64,000 nucleotides of DNA. Source: Thermodesulfovibrionales bacterium. GTDB lineage: Bacteria; Nitrospirota; Thermodesulfovibrionia; Thermodesulfovibrionales; SM23-35. Positions 7,133-15,158 of this stretch are shown here, one piece after another. The notes beneath the pieces are model-generated. The model had not been told where the DNA came from. It ran no database searches and was given only the letters and a program-made list of their open reading frames with translations. Every line of letters starts with the position of its first letter. Position 1 is the stretch's first letter. The stretch spans positions 128,001 to 192,000 of the forward strand of contig CAVQRT010000007.1 in assembly GCA_963715195.1 (NCBI GenBank), given 5' to 3'. Position numbers and translations under genes: made by a program.

Positions 7133-7171
7133 AAAAAAAATGGCAGGGAATGTATAACATCCCTGCCATTT
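7133..7171 (-). terminator. Intrinsic terminator of the small Sec-peptide gene
   Basis: Stem AAATGGCAGGGA/TCCCTGCCATTT ending in a T8 run on the minus strand, 8 nt after the TAA. Confidence 0.85.
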
Positions 7172-7179
7172 CGAATCGC

Positions 7180-7326
7180 TTATTCGTTGCTTGACCAGCA
7201 ACGTCAGCTTTTTCAGCTCTTTCACTTATGGCATGACTTCCCGGGAATTTCCTTCATGGCCGTCTTGATCCCTTCCCAGAAAGCAGTTTCTCTCGCGAGC
7301 ATTTTTTTGCTCAGCGGTTTTTTCAT
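7180..7326 (-). CDS. Putative multi-selenocysteine small peptide MKKPLSKKMLARETAFWEGIKTAMKEIPGKSCHKUKSUKSURCWSSNE (48 aa if all three UGA are recoded)
   Basis: AGGAGGTG RBS 6 nt before ATG; in-frame TGA at codons 35, 38 and 41 in register with Cys32; SECIS-like hairpin; own promoter and terminator; selD nearby. Confidence 0.7.
7185..7203 (-). other. Candidate bacterial SECIS element of the small peptide
   Basis: Perfect 7-bp stem CGTTGCT/AGCAACG with GGTCA loop; loop is 25 and 16 nt after the first and second TGA. Confidence 0.6.
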
Positions 7327-7392
7327 GGTAATCACCTCCTTTTCTCACATTGATAAATATTATGGGTAAAGGTTTGCTTATAGCTTTACTCA

Positions 7393-7420
7393 ATATTAGC
7401 AGATAAAAATTGTTTGTCAA
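7393..7420 (-). promoter_or_regulatory. Sigma70-type promoter of the small peptide gene
   Basis: TTGACA-16 nt-TAATAT with TG extended -10. Confidence 0.65.
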
Positions 7421-7454: not shown

Positions 7455-7483
7455 TTGACTTACATGCTGATATATGTCATTCT
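7455..7483 (+). promoter_or_regulatory. Candidate promoter of the cold-shock gene
   Basis: TTGACT-17 nt-CATTCT with TG extended -10. Confidence 0.45.
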
Positions 7484-7514
7484 ATAGGTGAAGTCCAGAA
7501 GTTTTTGTATTACG

Positions 7515-7551
7515 AAGGCCACAAAGACTTTTAGCTTTGTGGCCTTTTTTT
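7515..7551 (+). terminator. Terminator-like hairpin in the csp leader (possible attenuator)
   Basis: 12-bp stem AAGGCCACAAAG/CTTTGTGGCCTT running into T7, about 40 nt before the csp ATG. Confidence 0.6.
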
Positions 7552-7593
7552 GATCGTTCTGAGATTTCAATTTACACGTAAGGAGGGAAAATA

Positions 7594-7794
7594 ATGGCTC
7601 AGGGAAAAGTAAAGTGGTTCAACGACTCTAAAGGGTTTGGCTTTATCACCAGAGATGATGGTACGGATATTTTTGTCCATCATTCTTCCATCCAGGGTAA
7701 CGGATTCAAGTCCCTTTCCGAAGGCGATTCAGTCAGCTTTGACAGTGAGAGCGGCCCAAAAGGGCTGAAGGCAATTAACGTAGTGAAACACTAA
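7594..7794 (+). CDS. Cold-shock protein (CspA family)
   Basis: [12 protein letters not shown] (RNP1) and DIFVHHS (RNP2); AAGGAGG RBS. Confidence 0.97.
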
Positions 7795-7799
7795 GATGC

Positions 7800-7840
7800 G
7801 AAGAAGTCCCCTGCAAACGAGCGGGGGACTTCTTCATTTT
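7800..7840 (+). terminator. Hairpin/terminator after csp
   Basis: GAAGAAGTCCCC...GGGGACTTCTTC followed by ATTTT. Confidence 0.6.
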
Positions 7841-8466: not shown

Positions 8467-9516
8467 TTACAATACCTTAATGCAAGGAATTGAACTTGGT
8501 AATACGGTTCCAATGATTGCAGCAGTTTCAACACCTGCAGTTCTCAAGCTGTGAATTAACTGTTCCGCCTGAGATTCAGGAACAGCCAGAAGAAGACCGC
8601 CTGATGTTTGTGGATCAAAGAGCAATTCTTCCTCCTCCCTTGATAATTTTGCGACTATTTCAAGATGTCCTTCTGAAAGTTTTCTGTTTGCTTTATTGCT
8701 TCCAGTTGTTTCACCTTTACGGTACATCTCAAGAGCATGAGGATAAAACGGCAATTTATTATAGAAAAGGTTTATTTGAACTCCACTTCCTGATGACATT
8801 TCCCATGAATGTCCGACAATACCGAACCCTGTTATATCTGTACATGCATGGATATCGAAATTTACTGCCATATCAAGAGCCTTTTTATTAAGAGCGGCCA
8901 CCTGAGGTAAGATGCCTTCCAGTTCCTTGAAGGAGAGTTTTCCTGATCTGCAGGCATTAAACAAAACACCGGTGCCTAATGGTTTTGTGAGAATGAGGGA
9001 ATCACCCTCCTGAACCTTGCAGTTTGTTAATATTCTATCCGGATGAACGATTCCTGTTACGGCCAGACCATACTTGGGCTCATTGTCATCCACAGAATGT
9101 CCACCAGCCATAGAAGCACCAGCTTCAACAACTTTGTCATTGCCGCCACGAAGTATTTCCTTTAAGACACTCTTGTCAAGTTTCTTGGGAGGAAACATGA
9201 CAAGATTCAATGCAGTAAGAGGTTTACCCCCCATAGCATAGACGTCTGAGAGAGAATTCGCTGCAGCAATTTGTCCAAACCAATACGGATCATCTACCGG
9301 CGGAGTAATGAAATCAACGGTACTGATAAAGGCTATCTCATCTGACATGCGGTAAACTGCTGCATCGTCACACGTATTGAACCCGACAAGCAGGTTGGGA
9401 TCATGAGAAGAACTGAGCGCTTTGAGTGCTTCCGCCAGATCTGACGGACCTATTTTCGCTGCTCAGCCGCACGTGCGGGATAGTCCTGTAAGGGTTTTTT
9501 TCTTGAAGAGATTCAT
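8467..9516 (-). CDS. selD: Selenide, water dikinase SelD (selenoprotein, Sec18)
   Basis: The tracked ORF extends upstream through TGA 9463-9465 as LSRTCGUAAKIGP, the canonical active-site position. Also DDAAVY, ANSLSDVYAMGG, TDITGFG and DPQTSGGLL; AAGGA RBS. Confidence 0.96.
9431..9448 (-). other. SECIS element of selD
   Basis: TCCGTCA-GATC-TGGCGGA stem-loop; G-first loop 21 nt downstream of the UGA. Confidence 0.7.
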
Positions 9517-9633: not shown

Positions 9634-10908
9634 CTATGGTTTTCCTGTGGAATGAATTATAAAAATTGCAGCTATTATGAAAAAGAGTATAAGGAATTGT
9701 TGGAGGAGGCTACCCTTTTTGCTTTCTTCTCCAACAGTGAAAGCCCTTTCGCGTGTTATTGTTCCTCGGAGTGTCTTTTTAAAATGCTTCTTCAGTCTAA
9801 TACGGTTCAGGTATGTAAAAGGTGATTTCGAAACTTTTGCCTTGCCTGTCATCGCATTTTCAGGCTCGAAAAGCAGATCAAGAATATGAGTTGTGGGCAT
9901 AGAAGATCCCAAAGAATTAACACACCCTGCACAATAGGTGAGGACTCTATTGTTGCCGTCTGCTTCACTCCTTCTTAAGTGACTCCAGTTCTTGGCGAGT
10001 TCAGGGTTAAGATATCCAACGGAGCCACCCTCACCACAGCAAAGCGTTTTCATTCGACTGTGAGGCATTTCTTTTAAGGTTAGGCCTTTCGCACCCACTA
10101 AATCCCGTATTGCATCATGTACAGGTTTTTCGAACCGTGATGCGCAGGAATCGTGAATAGTTACAGTACCCTCCAGCCTGCCAGTTTCGGGCAAGGCAGT
10201 CTCAATTATCATTTCATATACTGTTTTCACTGTCAGTTCATTACCATAACGCTTGAACACTTTAAAGCAACTCGGACAGGCAACAATAATCTGACGAATC
10301 CCGTTGCTTAAAAGAAATGCCTTCATCTCATCAAACATTCGTTGAAAGTAACCTGCTCTGCCCAGATCATGAGATGGTAGTGTGCAACAGTCGAGGACAA
10401 TTCCCAGCTTTGGAATATTGCTGCTCAAATGCTCGTAAACTTCGATAACTTTTTGAGGATGTGTTCCCGAAAGAGCACACCCGGGGAAAAAAATTGTATC
10501 GCATCCGTGAGGTAGAGAATAAAAAGTGTATTTTTTTGAAATACCGCGCTTTTCGTACCGCAAAATAGTAGCATGCTCCGGATAATAACCGATCCCCCTT
10601 CTCACCGTTTCCCGTCGCATATCCAAAAACATCTCTGTAGGATTGATCTTTACGGGACATACTGCAGCGCACAGCTGGCAGAGGCTGCATTCGAATGGCA
10701 TACCCTGATACAGCTTATCATTCGGATCATATAAATCTGCTATATCTTTTGGTTTCCCGTATTTCCTGAGGAATGCACACTCCTTCTGGCAGAGCTTGCA
10801 TTTTATACATTTCTCGGACATGATCAGAATCTGCTCTCTGAGATTCTCTTCCACATCGAGAGTCGATACATCCCTTACCTGAATTTCACGTTTATCCATC
10901 ACTTCCAT
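9634..10908 (-). CDS. Fe-S binding oxidoreductase, HdrD/GlpC-like (2x[4Fe-4S] plus two CCG domains)
   Basis: CxxCxxCxxxC twice, FFPGC, ACPSC, HDSC, CCGEGG and YCAGC; one C-terminal hydrophobic helix. Confidence 0.88.
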   Translation of the reverse strand: MEVMDKREIQVRDVSTLDVEENLREQILIMSEKCIKCKLCQKECAFLRKYGKPKDIADLYDPNDKLYQGMPFECSLCQLCAAVCPVKINPTEMFLDMRRETVRRGIGYYPEHATILRYEKRGISKKYTFYSLPHGCDTIFFPGCALSGTHPQKVIEVYEHLSSNIPKLGIVLDCCTLPSHDLGRAGYFQRMFDEMKAFLLSNGIRQIIVACPSCFKVFKRYGNELTVKTVYEMIIETALPETGRLEGTVTIHDSCASRFEKPVHDAIRDLVGAKGLTLKEMPHSRMKTLCCGEGGSVGYLNPELAKNWSHLRRSEADGNNRVLTYCAGCVNSLGSSMPTTHILDLLFEPENAMTGKAKVSKSPFTYLNRIRLKKHFKKTLRGTITRERAFTVGEESKKGSLLQQFLILFFIIAAIFIIHSTGKP

Positions 10909-11065
10909 TTAAACGCATCTGCTCCAGGATATCCAATTCATATTTGTTATACCAGCAGAGGAATCAATAGACATTATCAATGCTGAAAAACGAAGATGAT
11001 CGAGTGAAATATCAATTCGTAGCTGAGGACAATTACATAGAAGATCAAAAATAAGGTAACATTGC

Positions 11066-11101
11066 TGTCATTCCCGCAAGCGAAGAACGTCCGGAATGAC
11101 A
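11066..11101. repeat. REP-like palindromic element
   Basis: TGTCATTCC...GGAATGACA 9-bp terminal inverted repeat in intergenic DNA. Confidence 0.5.
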
Positions 11102-11139
11102 AAGGTTTTCATACATATGAACCTGTAAGCAACTTATTA

Positions 11140-12411
11140 TTATTCGGAGGAAAGGACTTCTTGGTAGACCGTTCGTATTTTACTGTAAATGCCCTGCCAG
11201 TTCATAGACTCTATGCAAGGGATAACTTCATTTTCCCAGTTGGGTTCCTGAGCAGTGCAACGGTAAAGCTGCCTGTTAATGGCAGTCACGAGGTTATGCA
11301 CAAACGGCGGAAGGGATGATGGATCAGGTACATCAGGGCCCATCAACTGCGGCATCGGAACCAATTCCACGATCCCCTCATTGGTGAGCCTTTCCGGCAG
11401 CCAATGATTTATTCCGGGAAGATTTGTCACGACAACCCTGCAACCGCAGGCGATTGCCTCAAGAACAACAAGGGGAAGGCCCTCATATAATGATGGAAGC
11501 ACAAAGACATCGGCATCCTGAAAGATGGAAGCGAGATCTTCCTGCGGTTTCTGACCGAGAAATTCCACAATATCCCGAAATCTGAAAGCTTTTTCACGAA
11601 TTAATTCAGCTTCATCCCCTGCTCCGGAGCCGACAATACGGAGACGAATATGTTTCCCCGAAGGATGCTCCAAATGTTCTGCTGATTCAATAAGCCATGG
11701 TAATCCTTTTGCAAAACTCAGCTTCCCGGCATATACAATCGTAAGCGTATCTTTTTGGCTACGGCTGCAAGTCATGGATAGAGGAGGACAGAAAATATCA
11801 TTTCGGAAACCTGCACCGATGAGTTTTATGCAAGAAAGGTCAATCCCGTAAAGTTCGTGTATCCTTACCATATGATTCTCGTGGAGAGCCATAACCCTAT
11901 CGACATATGAACACGCAGGAATGACAAATTCTCTGAATACAGGTGCCAAATCCAGTTGTCTTATCTCAGTCCCGTGGCAGGTTGTCACCAGGGGGATATC
12001 TGTGAAGAGCAATCTTGTTAAGGCAGTTGCCAGCCAGAGGTGATGCGTGTGGATTACATGGGGACGAAAATCCCTTACGTTTTTCTTTAGAATGGATGCA
12101 AAGGCATAAAGATATGCGTCAAGCATTTCAGGGGTAAAGTCCGAAAATTTCGTACTCTGATACGGCATGACATCACTCATGCCAGCCACAGGGTAGGGGA
12201 GGTCAGGATCACAGAATCTGACGCATGTTATGCAGGATGTGTCGAGAGATGTCATTTCGGGTTTTGCAGAATCTGACGGGATACCGACAATTATTTTTTG
12301 CTGAAGACCGTCTCTCGCGCCCTGCTGAACTAATGCCTGCAGATAGACACCGCTCCCTGTTTTGCCAGGTTGCTGGGAGAGGAGATGGAGAATCCGCATC
12401 GGGCCATTCAT
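11140..12411 (-). CDS. Glycosyltransferase family 4 (GT-B)
   Basis: HTHHLW, YAGKLSFAKG and PSLYEGLPLVVLEA (E-x7-E); start placed after AAGGAG. Confidence 0.88.
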   Translation of the reverse strand: MNGPMRILHLLSQQPGKTGSGVYLQALVQQGARDGLQQKIIVGIPSDSAKPEMTSLDTSCITCVRFCDPDLPYPVAGMSDVMPYQSTKFSDFTPEMLDAYLYAFASILKKNVRDFRPHVIHTHHLWLATALTRLLFTDIPLVTTCHGTEIRQLDLAPVFREFVIPACSYVDRVMALHENHMVRIHELYGIDLSCIKLIGAGFRNDIFCPPLSMTCSRSQKDTLTIVYAGKLSFAKGLPWLIESAEHLEHPSGKHIRLRIVGSGAGDEAELIREKAFRFRDIVEFLGQKPQEDLASIFQDADVFVLPSLYEGLPLVVLEAIACGCRVVVTNLPGINHWLPERLTNEGIVELVPMPQLMGPDVPDPSSLPPFVHNLVTAINRQLYRCTAQEPNWENEVIPCIESMNWQGIYSKIRTVYQEVLSSE

Positions 12412-12628
12412 TTTCACGTGTCTCCTTAATCTGACCGGTTGATGATATTTCAGCAGTTGCCAGGAAAGAGATCCATTAACCGGCCATTCAGGAGTTATGC
12501 GCAGGTGTGGTTCCATAGGATTTAAAATGTAAGCATACCATACTACATAATACAAATATGATTTTTCATATTTCACATCGACTTCTCTTTGCATGGATTC
12601 AGATAAACATTACTGTTACAATAAGGAC

Positions 12629-13099
12629 ATGTTTCATCTCGATATCCCAGGATATGGTCATTTGGACCTTGAATATTTTGTCACTGATTATTCCGGTACG
12701 CTTTCTGAGGATGGTTCTCTTCTCGCTGGGATAAAAGAAAAGCTGAATGACCTTTCTGAAAAATTGCACATCCATGTATTAACCTCCGACACATTCGGAA
12801 AGGCTAAAGATGAGCTAATAGGAATTCAATGCACGCTTCATGTTCTCGGGGGGAATGATCATACAAAGCAGAAGGAAAAATATGTCGTAGAGCTTGGAGC
12901 AGATAAAGTAGTTGCTTTCGGCAACGGCAATAATGATGTGGGAATGCTGAAAGCGGCAAGAGTCGGGATAGCTGTATGTCTCAAAGAAGGATGTTCTTCA
13001 GAATCCATCAAGGCATCTGAAATTCTCGTCAGATCTCCCATTGATGCAATTGATCTCTTTCTCTTCCCGAAGAGACTTATTGCTACCCTGAGAAGATAG
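12629..13099 (+). CDS. HAD-superfamily hydrolase (soluble P-type ATPase-like)
   Basis: DYSGTL motif I, LTSDTFG and GNGNND motif IV. Confidence 0.85.
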   Translation: MFHLDIPGYGHLDLEYFVTDYSGTLSEDGSLLAGIKEKLNDLSEKLHIHVLTSDTFGKAKDELIGIQCTLHVLGGNDHTKQKEKYVVELGADKVVAFGNGNNDVGMLKAARVGIAVCLKEGCSSESIKASEILVRSPIDAIDLFLFPKRLIATLRR

Positions 13100-13120
13100 T
13101 CAGAAGATCATTCCCCCGGA

Positions 13121-14041
13121 TCATTTTCGTTGCAGAACCAAGGCAGCTTGCCAAAAATGATTAGGATCATCGATATAGGTATGAATCGTAAAAAAAGGAG
13201 ACCATTCACGTTCGATAAAGGAAAGCGGAACAATAGCATCTCCGTAGGTTCGGCCAATATGTTCACCACAGGTTGGCAGAAAAGCAATCTCGCCTGCATC
13301 GTATTTCTGGTATAACGCCTCAGATTGTTCAGAATATTGAGAGAGTAACCTGTACCATTCGGACTTTGTATCAGGTGGAATGGTGGTAATGAAATCAATG
13401 AACCGTCTCGGCTCAAGCGTGAGGCAGAATACACTTCCAGGCTTTGAAACTCGTGCAAGTTCGTGCATCCAGTGGAGATTCACACTTTCCGGAAGATGTG
13501 TGAAGACAGAATAGGCTATGATGAAGTCAAAATACGCATCCCGATAGGGAAGTCTTTCTTCGGGAGCTATGAGAGAGAGATTCCCCGGAACGTTTGTTTT
13601 TCGACAGACATCAAGGATTATTGAATTTACATCACAGCCAAACAGTCTATTCACGTTGACATCCTTCCAGAAAAACCGTAAAAACCGACCCCAACCACAT
13701 CCGAAGTCAAGTACCCGACTCTTTCGTTGAAGGGGCATATTCAATAACGCCGCCTGTTGCTTCATAAATGAATAAAAAACGAATGCCTCCTTTAGTGCAT
13801 GCTCATAGTCCGACCCGACAAATCTCACCTGGAGTTCAGGCGGTGGGAATCCCGGGAACTCGATGGTATCGATATTTTTTAAAGATATGCTTCTTATCAG
13901 CAGATCAAGCCAGTCCTCGTCGCAGAGGTTTCTGATATGTTCCGGAAGACGCCTTTTCCTCACCTCTAAAACCTTCTTCGTTTCACGAAAAAGGTTCTTC
14001 ACGTGGTTAAGCATGCATATATAGTAATCGATTGGCGACAA
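13121..14041 (-). CDS. Class I SAM-dependent methyltransferase (start uncertain)
   Basis: VLDFGCGWGR, FDFIIAYSVFTHL and RVSKPG. Confidence 0.88.
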   Translation of the reverse strand: MSPIDYYICMLNHVKNLFRETKKVLEVRKRRLPEHIRNLCDEDWLDLLIRSISLKNIDTIEFPGFPPPELQVRFVGSDYEHALKEAFVFYSFMKQQAALLNMPLQRKSRVLDFGCGWGRFLRFFWKDVNVNRLFGCDVNSIILDVCRKTNVPGNLSLIAPEERLPYRDAYFDFIIAYSVFTHLPESVNLHWMHELARVSKPGSVFCLTLEPRRFIDFITTIPPDTKSEWYRLLSQYSEQSEALYQKYDAGEIAFLPTCGEHIGRTYGDAIVPLSFIEREWSPFFTIHTYIDDPNHFWQAALVLQRK

Positions 14042-14152
14042 AAACTGCAGGCGATTGAGGGAAAAATATCTAAGGCATTATGAGTTGAGTTCATGCATCG
14101 GTGAGAGTGTGATTTCGCCCAACACCCTCACCGAAAAAAGGGTAATAATTTT

Positions 14153-14665
14153 CTATTTGACTTTTTCTACGGGATAATCAGCTTCATTCCAGGCTTTGAT
14201 ACCACCTGGATACCGGTATACATTATTGTAACCGAGCTTCACGGCCCACATTGCACCGTTGTGACTCCGTGTGCATTTTACGAAGCCGCAATAAATGACT
14301 ATCGGAATTTCTTTATCGGGACCAAGCAACTTTAAAAAAGCTTCTTTGGTTTTTTCATCGAGGTTTGTCAACTCCGGAATCGGAAACTCGAATTGCACAG
14401 CACCCGGGATATGCTCTTTCTTATAACTGTCTTCGTATGGCATCGTATCAACGATAAGCATGTTCTTCTTCTCGTCAATCCACTTCTTCAGTTCGTCGGT
14501 TGATACAATCTTATAGCCTCCGCGTATGACTTCATTGGCAAATTTGACGGCAGACGCTTCTGTTTCGAGCTCTTTGCTTCCCCATGCTCCAAAACTGTTT
14601 ACAGAAACAGACAAGAGAAACATGCTACAGAAAACCAATGCGGTAAATACCCTTGCTCCCTTCAT
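14153..14665 (-). CDS. Exported rhodanese-like domain protein
   Basis: Signal peptide, HIPGA, YCGFVKCTRS loop and YPGGIKAW. Confidence 0.9.
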   Translation of the reverse strand: MKGARVFTALVFCSMFLLSVSVNSFGAWGSKELETEASAVKFANEVIRGGYKIVSTDELKKWIDEKKNMLIVDTMPYEDSYKKEHIPGAVQFEFPIPELTNLDEKTKEAFLKLLGPDKEIPIVIYCGFVKCTRSHNGAMWAVKLGYNNVYRYPGGIKAWNEADYPVEKVK

Positions 14666-14678
14666 GCTTACTACCTCC

Positions 14679-15158
14679 TTAAAGTAAATTGATAAGCCAC
14701 GAACGCGGGCTCATTGTGCGATCTGATCGGATATATCTGTGCAGATATATGAAAAATACTGCCCCCATCATCAATAAATCGCGGTAGAAGGCTCTCTTGA
14801 GACTGTCGTGGCCTGCGATCTCTTCAGGGGTGAAACAGCCGCAGCCTATACTCAGATCTTTCAGGATGCCATACCAGAGAACAAATACAAACAGAACGAG
14901 CATGCTGAATATTACGGTTAGACTGCCGCGGATGTTGAAAATAAGTCCTAACCCAGCAAGAAGCTCCATCAGGGGTAACCCGACAGCAACAGGCGCCAGG
15001 AAGGCTTCTGGTATAAGGTCATACTGGGAAATCACCTTTGCAAATGATTTAGGATCCATAATTTTCAGGGATCCCGCGTAGACAAATATACCACCAATCA
15101 TTAATCTTAAAAGAAGGTTGAACCAGGGAGAATGAATGATCTGTTTCAATGAACCCAT
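14679..15158 (-). CDS. MauE/DoxX family redox-associated membrane protein
   Basis: LRLxIGGIFVYAGxLK, ELLAG, CGCF and RD motifs; four TM segments. Confidence 0.88.
   Translation of the reverse strand: MGSLKQIIHSPWFNLLLRLMIGGIFVYAGSLKIMDPKSFAKVISQYDLIPEAFLAPVAVGLPLMELLAGLGLIFNIRGSLTVIFSMLVLFVFVLWYGILKDLSIGCGCFTPEEIAGHDSLKRAFYRDLLMMGAVFFIYLHRYIRSDRTMSPRSWLINLL

Follow-up and report, generated by a model that had tools for sequence, protein, structure and literature searches.

The peptide gene and its surroundings

We have analyzed a window of 64,000 nucleotides from a contig of a Thermodesulfovibrionales bacterium (CAVQRT010000007.1, positions 128,001 to 192,000), and specifically a small gene located on its minus strand. 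The gene starts with an ATG at 7326 and has in-frame TGA triplets at codons 35, 38 and 41 (7224, 7215 and 7206, called here UGA1, UGA2 and UGA3), followed by a hairpin (Table 1). Our analysis indicates that this is likely a selenium peptide gene of 40 codons that has been hidden by annotation, with the first two UGAs read as selenocysteine (Sec) and the third one ending it. Actually, the databases carry the product as a 34-residue hypothetical protein whose last residue is Lys34, the gene being cut at codon 34.

Table 1. Features of the peptide locus, in coordinates of the window
Feature	Position	Strand	Basis or remarks
Sigma-70-type promoter-like site, with TG extension	7392..7420	-	Consensus match only, 10/12
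Shine-Dalgarno sequence, start codon 6 nt downstream	7333..7341	-	Similar site upstream of 24/24 family-level homologs
Peptide gene, 40 codons plus stop	7204..7326	-	Helical basic N-terminal part, C-terminal C-x-K-U-K-x-U-K-S
Cys32 codon, invariant	7231..7233	-	TGC/TGT in 68/68 + 55/55, TGA never
UGA1, putative Sec35	7222..7224	-	25 nt from SECIS loop; TGA in 68/68 + 56/56 scored copies
UGA2, putative Sec38	7213..7215	-	16 nt from SECIS loop; TGA in 68/68 + 55/56 (L221 without)
UGA3, true stop	7204..7206	-	Loop just 7 nt away; TAA 74, TGA 48, TAG 16, sense 4 of 142
SECIS-like hairpin, entirely within the 3' UTR	7185..7203	-	7-bp stem, loop 7196-7192 begins GG
Second hairpin, weak and unconserved, outside the proposed mechanism	7172..7186	-	Fold; 1/119 copies
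Terminator-like long stem, then U run	7133..7171	-	z = -5.8 for 7140-7209; consensus scan did not call it

The promoter-like site upstream (the consensus scan found 3 sites against 2.2 expected in shuffles) and the terminator-like stem downstream suggest that the gene, flanked by cspA and mutS, is a unit of its own. A long stem 3' of the SECIS-like hairpin was also apparent in most of the homologs displayed. RNA contigs from 4 of the 12 listed runs were identical to the neighbouring cspA and none of them lay over the peptide gene. The cspA gene itself (window 7460-7840, plus strand) scored 59.7 bits with the Rfam model of the cspA thermoregulator, below its cut-off of 78.

The predicted peptide is basic (11 K/R versus 3 D/E), with a helix predicted over residues 7-26 and the residues E13 and W17 invariant, and no hydrophobic signal was found in it. 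The Pfam and NCBIfam profiles gave no match beyond the chance level to the 24 peptide members compared. When we looked for a paralog within the same genome only a chance hit appeared, and the sole match in viral contigs was, also by chance, to the N-terminus of a terminase.

The genome has selA, selB, a tRNA-Sec(UCA) and a Sec-type selD, the last one located 1.2 kb away from the peptide gene. This selD (window 8467-9516, minus strand) codes itself for a selenoprotein, with a Cys-Gly-Sec motif whose Sec codon is at 9465-9463 and a hairpin loop 21 nt downstream of the UGA; standard ORF calling begins it too late. Close to selD, the region 9634-15158 of the same strand codes for a dicluster Fe-S protein partly matching NF045663 and a rhodanese partly matching the selenoprotein TsoB, both below the cut-off, and it may be concerned with the handling of selenium or sulfur. 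Elsewhere in the genome (G000) there are two Sec-type formate dehydrogenase alpha subunits, at C7:304895-306238 and C3:45068-46477, the former with a weak Rfam SECIS_3 match to the FdhA SECIS.

The UGA codons and the hairpin

In order to follow the three UGAs across homologs we have used several samples. A family-level search of 57 genomes gave 29 hits, 24 of them true homologs (the weak hits L036-L040 were left out), and a phylum sample of 401 genomes gave 76, reduced to 73 genomes with the peptide after dropping the weak G084, G425 and G059. In a second class, centred on a Syntrophorhabdaceae genome, the peptide was found in 48 of 96 genomes. Invariance was scored with a pattern that permitted Cys in 68 genome copies, together with 80 metagenome loci selected by the partner enzyme described below. 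The sets of 119 and 142 copies that appear in other comparisons had been selected by the presence of both TGAs, and they were excluded as evidence for the invariance of the first two.

With Cys permitted, positions 35 and 38 were both TGA in all 68 genome copies, and in the metagenome loci picked by the enzyme alone both TGAs were present in 55 of the 56 distinct copies. The behaviour of position 41 was very different. Among 142 copies, 90 had TAA or TAG there and 4 had a sense codon and then a stop, and TGA made up 48 of the 138 stops (35%), which compares with 420 of 1144 (37%) in the long ORFs of the genome. This exchange with TAA and TAG, with TGA at the background rate, indicates that UGA3 is the stop. 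An earlier, sequence-only reading had left this as one of two options, and its 40-residue product is the one that the homologs favour. Besides, codons 36-40 vary as protein code does: Ser40 is written with both AGY and TCN, Gly37 with all four of its codons and Lys with AAA and AAG. The changes at codons 36, 37, 39 and 40 are synonymous or conservative, so that conservation past the UGA is at the protein level. Taken against position 41, the invariance of UGA1 and UGA2 and these coding-like changes argue that both have been selected as UGA and that the frame is translated beyond them.

Homologs with Cys aligned to the UGA are the usual proof of a selenoprotein. None was found at either position among the 68 and 56 copies scored, and this is possibly an obligate-Sec family. 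A few copies depart from the common pattern. The metagenome locus L221 is a single-UGA copy, 6 bases shorter, and may represent a variant with one Sec or a collapse in the assembly. In one genome (G391; L106, L107, L151:7073-7215) there are three copies of the peptide gene, two of them intact and the other with a frameshift, the two UGAs and the hairpin being retained in it. A relic of the tail, the single case of this kind, was found in G028; its UGA2, stop and stem are all changed, and the genome gave no match to the enzyme.

The hairpin lies directly 3' of UGA3, with a 7-bp stem (7203-7185) and a loop, GGUCA, that starts 25, 16 and 7 nt after UGA1, UGA2 and UGA3. These distances, already given in the sequence-only reading, hold on the minus strand. 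It folds with -9.4 kcal/mol, and for the segment 7180-7227 z was -2.9 (2 of 200 shuffles were equally stable). The genome contains 194 patterns of the type TGA-6nt-TGA-6nt-stop, 8 of them preceded by a Cys codon, and the peptide locus is the only one with a hairpin of at least 6 bp and a GG loop at 15-18 nt. When each copy was folded singly, 106 of 119 family copies passed a test for a hairpin with G in the loop, compared with 76 of 2855 random TGAs. Covariation of the stem, which had been proposed as a check, was found as well: in the 24 family copies 98.6% of the cells were paired, a figure that may be inflated by the relatedness of the sequences, with 10 double-sided changes, and none of 500 shuffles and no slid control was as high. 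A wider alignment of 66 sequences gave a lower value, 72.5%, because loops of 4 and 5 nt are mixed in it with no gaps.

The bacterial SECIS model described in PMC13188914 has a loop of 3-9 nt over an upper stem of 4-16 bp, a G within the first two loop positions (mostly GG or GU), a distance of 16-37 nt from UGA to loop and an energy of -7.5 kcal/mol or lower. In the window the loop has 5 nt, the stem 7 bp and the loop begins with GG. Loops of 3-5 nt were found in 116 of the 119 copies, and of these 87 had GG and 22 GT; the energy was within the limit in the window and in 106 of the 116. The distance range included UGA1 in 116 of 116 copies, UGA2 in 114 and position 41 in none. Actually, the distance from UGA2 to the loop is narrow, 16-18 nt in 105 of the 116.

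The resemblance to the minihelix of Escherichia coli fdhF that had been pointed out is real. We fetched the fdhF gene, whose own loop is 18 nt after the UGA. Its exact 14-mer is present in 23 of 142 family hairpins, and the hairpin in the window is one base off within the first 10. Unlike the one in fdhF, the window hairpin is without a lower stem and without the bulged U, sits wholly 3' of the stop, and would have to serve two UGAs with a third at 7 nt terminating. The E. coli data favour a bulged U and a fixed spacing, with 11 nt between the UGA and the upper stem (PMC8659212); here the distance to the start of the stem is 9-10 nt from UGA2 and 18-19 nt from UGA1. At the gathering threshold the Rfam SECIS models found nothing in the window, and with E relaxed to 10 the hairpin was still unmatched in 4 family loci. 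A blastn of the fdh genes of the genome against E. coli found nothing.

Two other structures were considered. A short AGCU/AGCU hairpin over UGA2 and UGA3 was discarded as a recoding element, since it is too near UGA1 and is broken by Gly and Ala codons. The second hairpin noted by the sequence-only reading does exist at 7186-7172, and the role once suggested for it in recoding UGA3 is not supported: it folds with just -2.7 kcal/mol (z = -0.8), it overlaps the first hairpin at its 3' arm, and it was present in 1 of 119 copies.

Judged by its sequence and folding, the hairpin is supported as a conserved candidate SECIS of the fdhF type. Sec insertion at both UGAs is very probably directed by this one hairpin, as had been suggested. 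It is the simplest reading, because a ribosome arrives at UGA2 only after reading UGA1, and no further conserved structure was seen. A SECIS located past the stop codon is also found in the SaoC, UXX-star and KCU-star families and in an engineered TrxR (10.1101/2022.07.06.499078 and PMC10778597), and the UxxU selenoproteins (NF041115, FmdB family) have two Sec three residues apart, as does the peptide (PMC13188914 Table 1). For none of the C-terminal or UxxU selenoproteins is a tail of the type C-x2-U-x2-U listed, nor a maturase of the radical SAM class. SECIS past the stop (SaoC, engineered TrxR, and SbtA in this genome) and UxxU selenoproteins are already known.

The radical SAM/SPASM partner

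In 8 of the 24 family loci the next gene codes for a 346-residue radical SAM/SPASM protein. The source genome has its ortholog at C3:30483-31520, upstream of argS and on a different contig from the peptide; it does not figure in the sequence-only reading. Among the 401 genomes, 72 had both peptide and enzyme, one had the peptide only (at a contig end), two the enzyme only (one truncated) and 326 neither. The enzyme was adjacent in 63 of the 72, 27-389 nt downstream of the peptide, and unlinked in the source genome. For the 57 family genomes the numbers were 23 with both, one with the peptide only, two with the enzyme only and 31 with neither. The genomes compared throughout are kin, so that the counts are not independent. 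In the family selA was present in 23 of the 24 peptide carriers (the exception is a 70% complete genome) and also in 25 of the 31 genomes with neither gene, indicating that the pair is not a mere follower of Sec use. Of the 80 metagenome loci selected by the enzyme, 59 had the peptide, 13 with enough flank did not and 8 were too short. In the second class peptide and enzyme were adjacent in 24 of the 26 loci examined.

The separation of the two genes falls mostly in one branch of the enzyme tree (15 rows, 3 changes), a quick tree with long-branch outgroups that was used for this split arrangement only. Both genes are kept there, and their retention after separation points to a functional link in trans. 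Four of the 19 separated peptide loci adjoin selB or selD. In six loci (L122, L123, L109, L246, L249 and L255) the peptide and the start of the enzyme match are 26-42 nt apart and there is no terminator stem between them, so that the SECIS overlaps the region where the enzyme gene begins, and it is possible that in them the two genes are coupled. Near position 3330 of L139 (G187) the 5' end of the enzyme gene is cut and fused to unrelated-looking DNA, possibly by misassembly.

More distant enzymes, at 38-42% identity (six plus two), were dropped as weak hits; no such peptide was found near them in the eight stretches examined. They belong to distant radical SAM/SPASM subfamilies (L068 and L069, from G052 and G036, and L140-L145), and one of them is followed by a PqqD-sized gene. 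A search of genome contigs with one enzyme returned the query and distant relatives only, and the peptide was absent from the genomes of 4 of those relatives.

The enzyme has the domains PF04055 and PF13186, with a CX3CX2C motif, SPASM cysteines and ten Cys that are invariant in 97 sequences. Seven are SPASM cysteines, with spacing 18, 38, 3, 6, 3 and 23. Every NCBIfam cut-off was missed: the bits against the cut-off were 163-183/500 for AhbD, 146-168/400 for ACGX, 116-145/350 for SbtM and 79-83/340 for PapB. An identity as an AhbC, AhbD or NirJ heme enzyme is not supported, as the scores for AhbD/NirJ2, the best ones, are far below the cut-off. The genome has a separate AhbD-like gene, with 448 bits, that adjoins heme genes. 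The heme enzymes have a SPASM cysteine pattern similar to that of CteB. The structure model of the enzyme was weak (pLDDT 61), with SkfB, SuiB and PqqE as top folds.

The enzyme shares the seven-cysteine SPASM pattern of CteB, PapB and Tte1186, in which auxiliary cluster 1 has an open site. According to PMC10177961, the CteB pattern leaves there an open iron to which the substrate Se binds, and the three enzymes accept Sec substrates in vitro. Compared with the maturases of ranthipeptides and sactipeptides, there is no RRE (nor an N-terminal extension of the enzyme for one), the peptide is without a C-x3-D or C-x-T acceptor motif, and two residues follow Sec38. Neither RRE/PqqD nor a peptidase nor an exporter or transporter recurs among the 22 commonest neighbour clusters of the 142 loci (with 2.5 kb downstream in 68 of them). 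The commonest other neighbours were YceI (24/142) and a PEMT-like methyltransferase (13/142), with a flavin disulfide oxidoreductase in 4.

Among the closest known systems is SbtA/SbtM (TIGR04081/TIGR04082, "selenobacteriocin"), likewise a short Sec peptide of anaerobes with a C-terminal Sec, a SECIS past the stop and a radical SAM/SPASM enzyme. However, the peptide has no sequence similarity to SbtA (hhalign probability 0.4%; TIGR04081, with its leader and motif of the G/S-U-G type, matched none of the 24 members), and the enzyme is below the TIGR04082 cut-off and is without the 190-residue N-terminal part of SbtM. The pair is not SbtA/SbtM itself, a true version of which the genome encodes separately (707 and 44.6 bits), at about 49455-51275 of contig C3 (L148:5455-7275, minus strand). 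There the SbtA precursor, of 64 residues, has a single UGA close to its end, its hairpin overlaps the stop at 18 nt, and SbtM follows.

Proposed mechanism, alternatives and significance

Overall we consider it probable that one SECIS, two Sec, a stop at UGA3 and a radical SAM partner that modifies the peptide are the best explanation of the data. SelB bound to the hairpin in the 3' UTR would deliver Sec-tRNA twice, at UGA1 and at UGA2. At UGA3 the hairpin would sit at the ribosome entry and could not serve, so that release would follow, and distance alone would separate Sec from stop. Low selenium would produce truncations of 34 and 37 residues, as in any selenoprotein, and no longer form. The E-x3-W helix would then be bound by the enzyme as a leader and the C/U/U tail modified, a step that we hold to be rather likely. 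About the chemistry we can only be tentative. An oxidation of Sec and Cys like that of SbtM might give seleno- and thio-oxazoles and an intracellular peptide that binds soft metals or acts in redox. The oxazole-forming reaction of SbtM is described in PMC9204691. We favour oxazoles of this type because they need the preceding carbonyl alone, fit a two-residue tail and fit the family scores. The next likeliest products, selenoether cross-links, seem unlikely.

As an alternative, the peptide could be a small partner subunit whose C-x2-U-x2-U tail ligates an iron-sulfur cluster or shuttles electrons or selenium, with the enzyme acting on another substrate and the recoding unchanged. The register C-x2-C-x2-C is a ferredoxin cluster motif, which the tail resembles (Fer4_17 gave weak scores in 2 of the 24 members, best E 0.0055). 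YceI and the flavin disulfide oxidoreductase recur, whereas RRE, peptidase and exporter do not, and the enzyme scores best with heme enzymes that act on small molecules. A short gene with a leader helix and a C-terminal core, a stem-loop and a SPASM enzyme are, however, the usual layout of a precursor and its maturase, and the locus has it, with a leader-like helix, a C-terminal chalcogen core and a strong stem-loop. Together with the peptide maturases that are the top structural matches of the weak model, and with the AhbD-like gene that the genome keeps beside its heme genes, this makes the subunit role improbable. Much further from the data is UGA1 as an ordinary stop, with a product of 34 residues and the downstream codons and hairpin as a conserved RNA element with another job. 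Such a stop would drift to TAA and TAG as position 41 does, and UGA1 never does so in 124 copies with Cys permitted. The synonymous changes downstream with the frame kept, the fdhF 14-mer in a part of the hairpins and the selA of nearly all carriers are also against it, and we regard it as very improbable, even if the length in public databases, the failure to find Cys homologs and the RNA contigs, none of them over the gene in 4 runs, agree with it.

Two further alternatives concern the hairpins. It is scarcely credible that the first one serves UGA2 only, UGA1 being read by near-cognate insertion of Cys or Trp or through an unseen structure. The distance to UGA2 is indeed tightly held and near the 18 nt of fdhF, and 25 nt is past the E. 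coli optimum, but this value falls inside the published range, no second conserved structure was seen, and a leaky UGA has no clear advantage over a Cys codon in every copy. The least credible is a recoding of UGA3 through the second hairpin, with a product length that follows the selenium supply, as the sequence-only reading had envisaged. The source genome does have the second hairpin, and beyond UGA3 the next 7 codons are free of stops. However, a weak structure that overlaps the first and is nearly absent from the copies, and the free exchange of stops at position 41 with TGA at background frequency, speak against such a switch and its three-Sec form. Besides, the extension would be the SECIS read in frame, of varying length among homologs.

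The peptide family was absent from Table 1 of PMC13188914, a 119-family selenoprotein inventory of 2026, and the passages of PMC10945757 consulted had nothing on it or on one SECIS for two UGAs. The curated libraries (Pfam, NCBIfam) did not contain it, and the freely available papers searched described neither this family nor a bacterial case of two UGAs shown to depend on a single SECIS. In the literature searched, SbtA/SbtM is named as the sole Sec-containing RiPP from a radical SAM enzyme. On balance we lean to consider the family as a second class of natural selenium RiPPs, based on an obligate di-Sec peptide without sulfur-only relatives, with one 19-nt SECIS in the 3' UTR, a stop set by distance, an RRE-less enzyme that in the source lineage acts in trans, and a seleno-heterocycle or selenoether as product.

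The arrangement provides a natural minimal test of the distance rule of bacterial SECIS, in which 25, 16 and 7 nt have been treated by evolution as Sec, Sec and stop. This has a bearing on the function of SelB and on the production in bacteria of proteins with two selenocysteines. The pair of selenopeptide and enzyme would be widespread across many anaerobic bacteria, in which annotation has shortened it.
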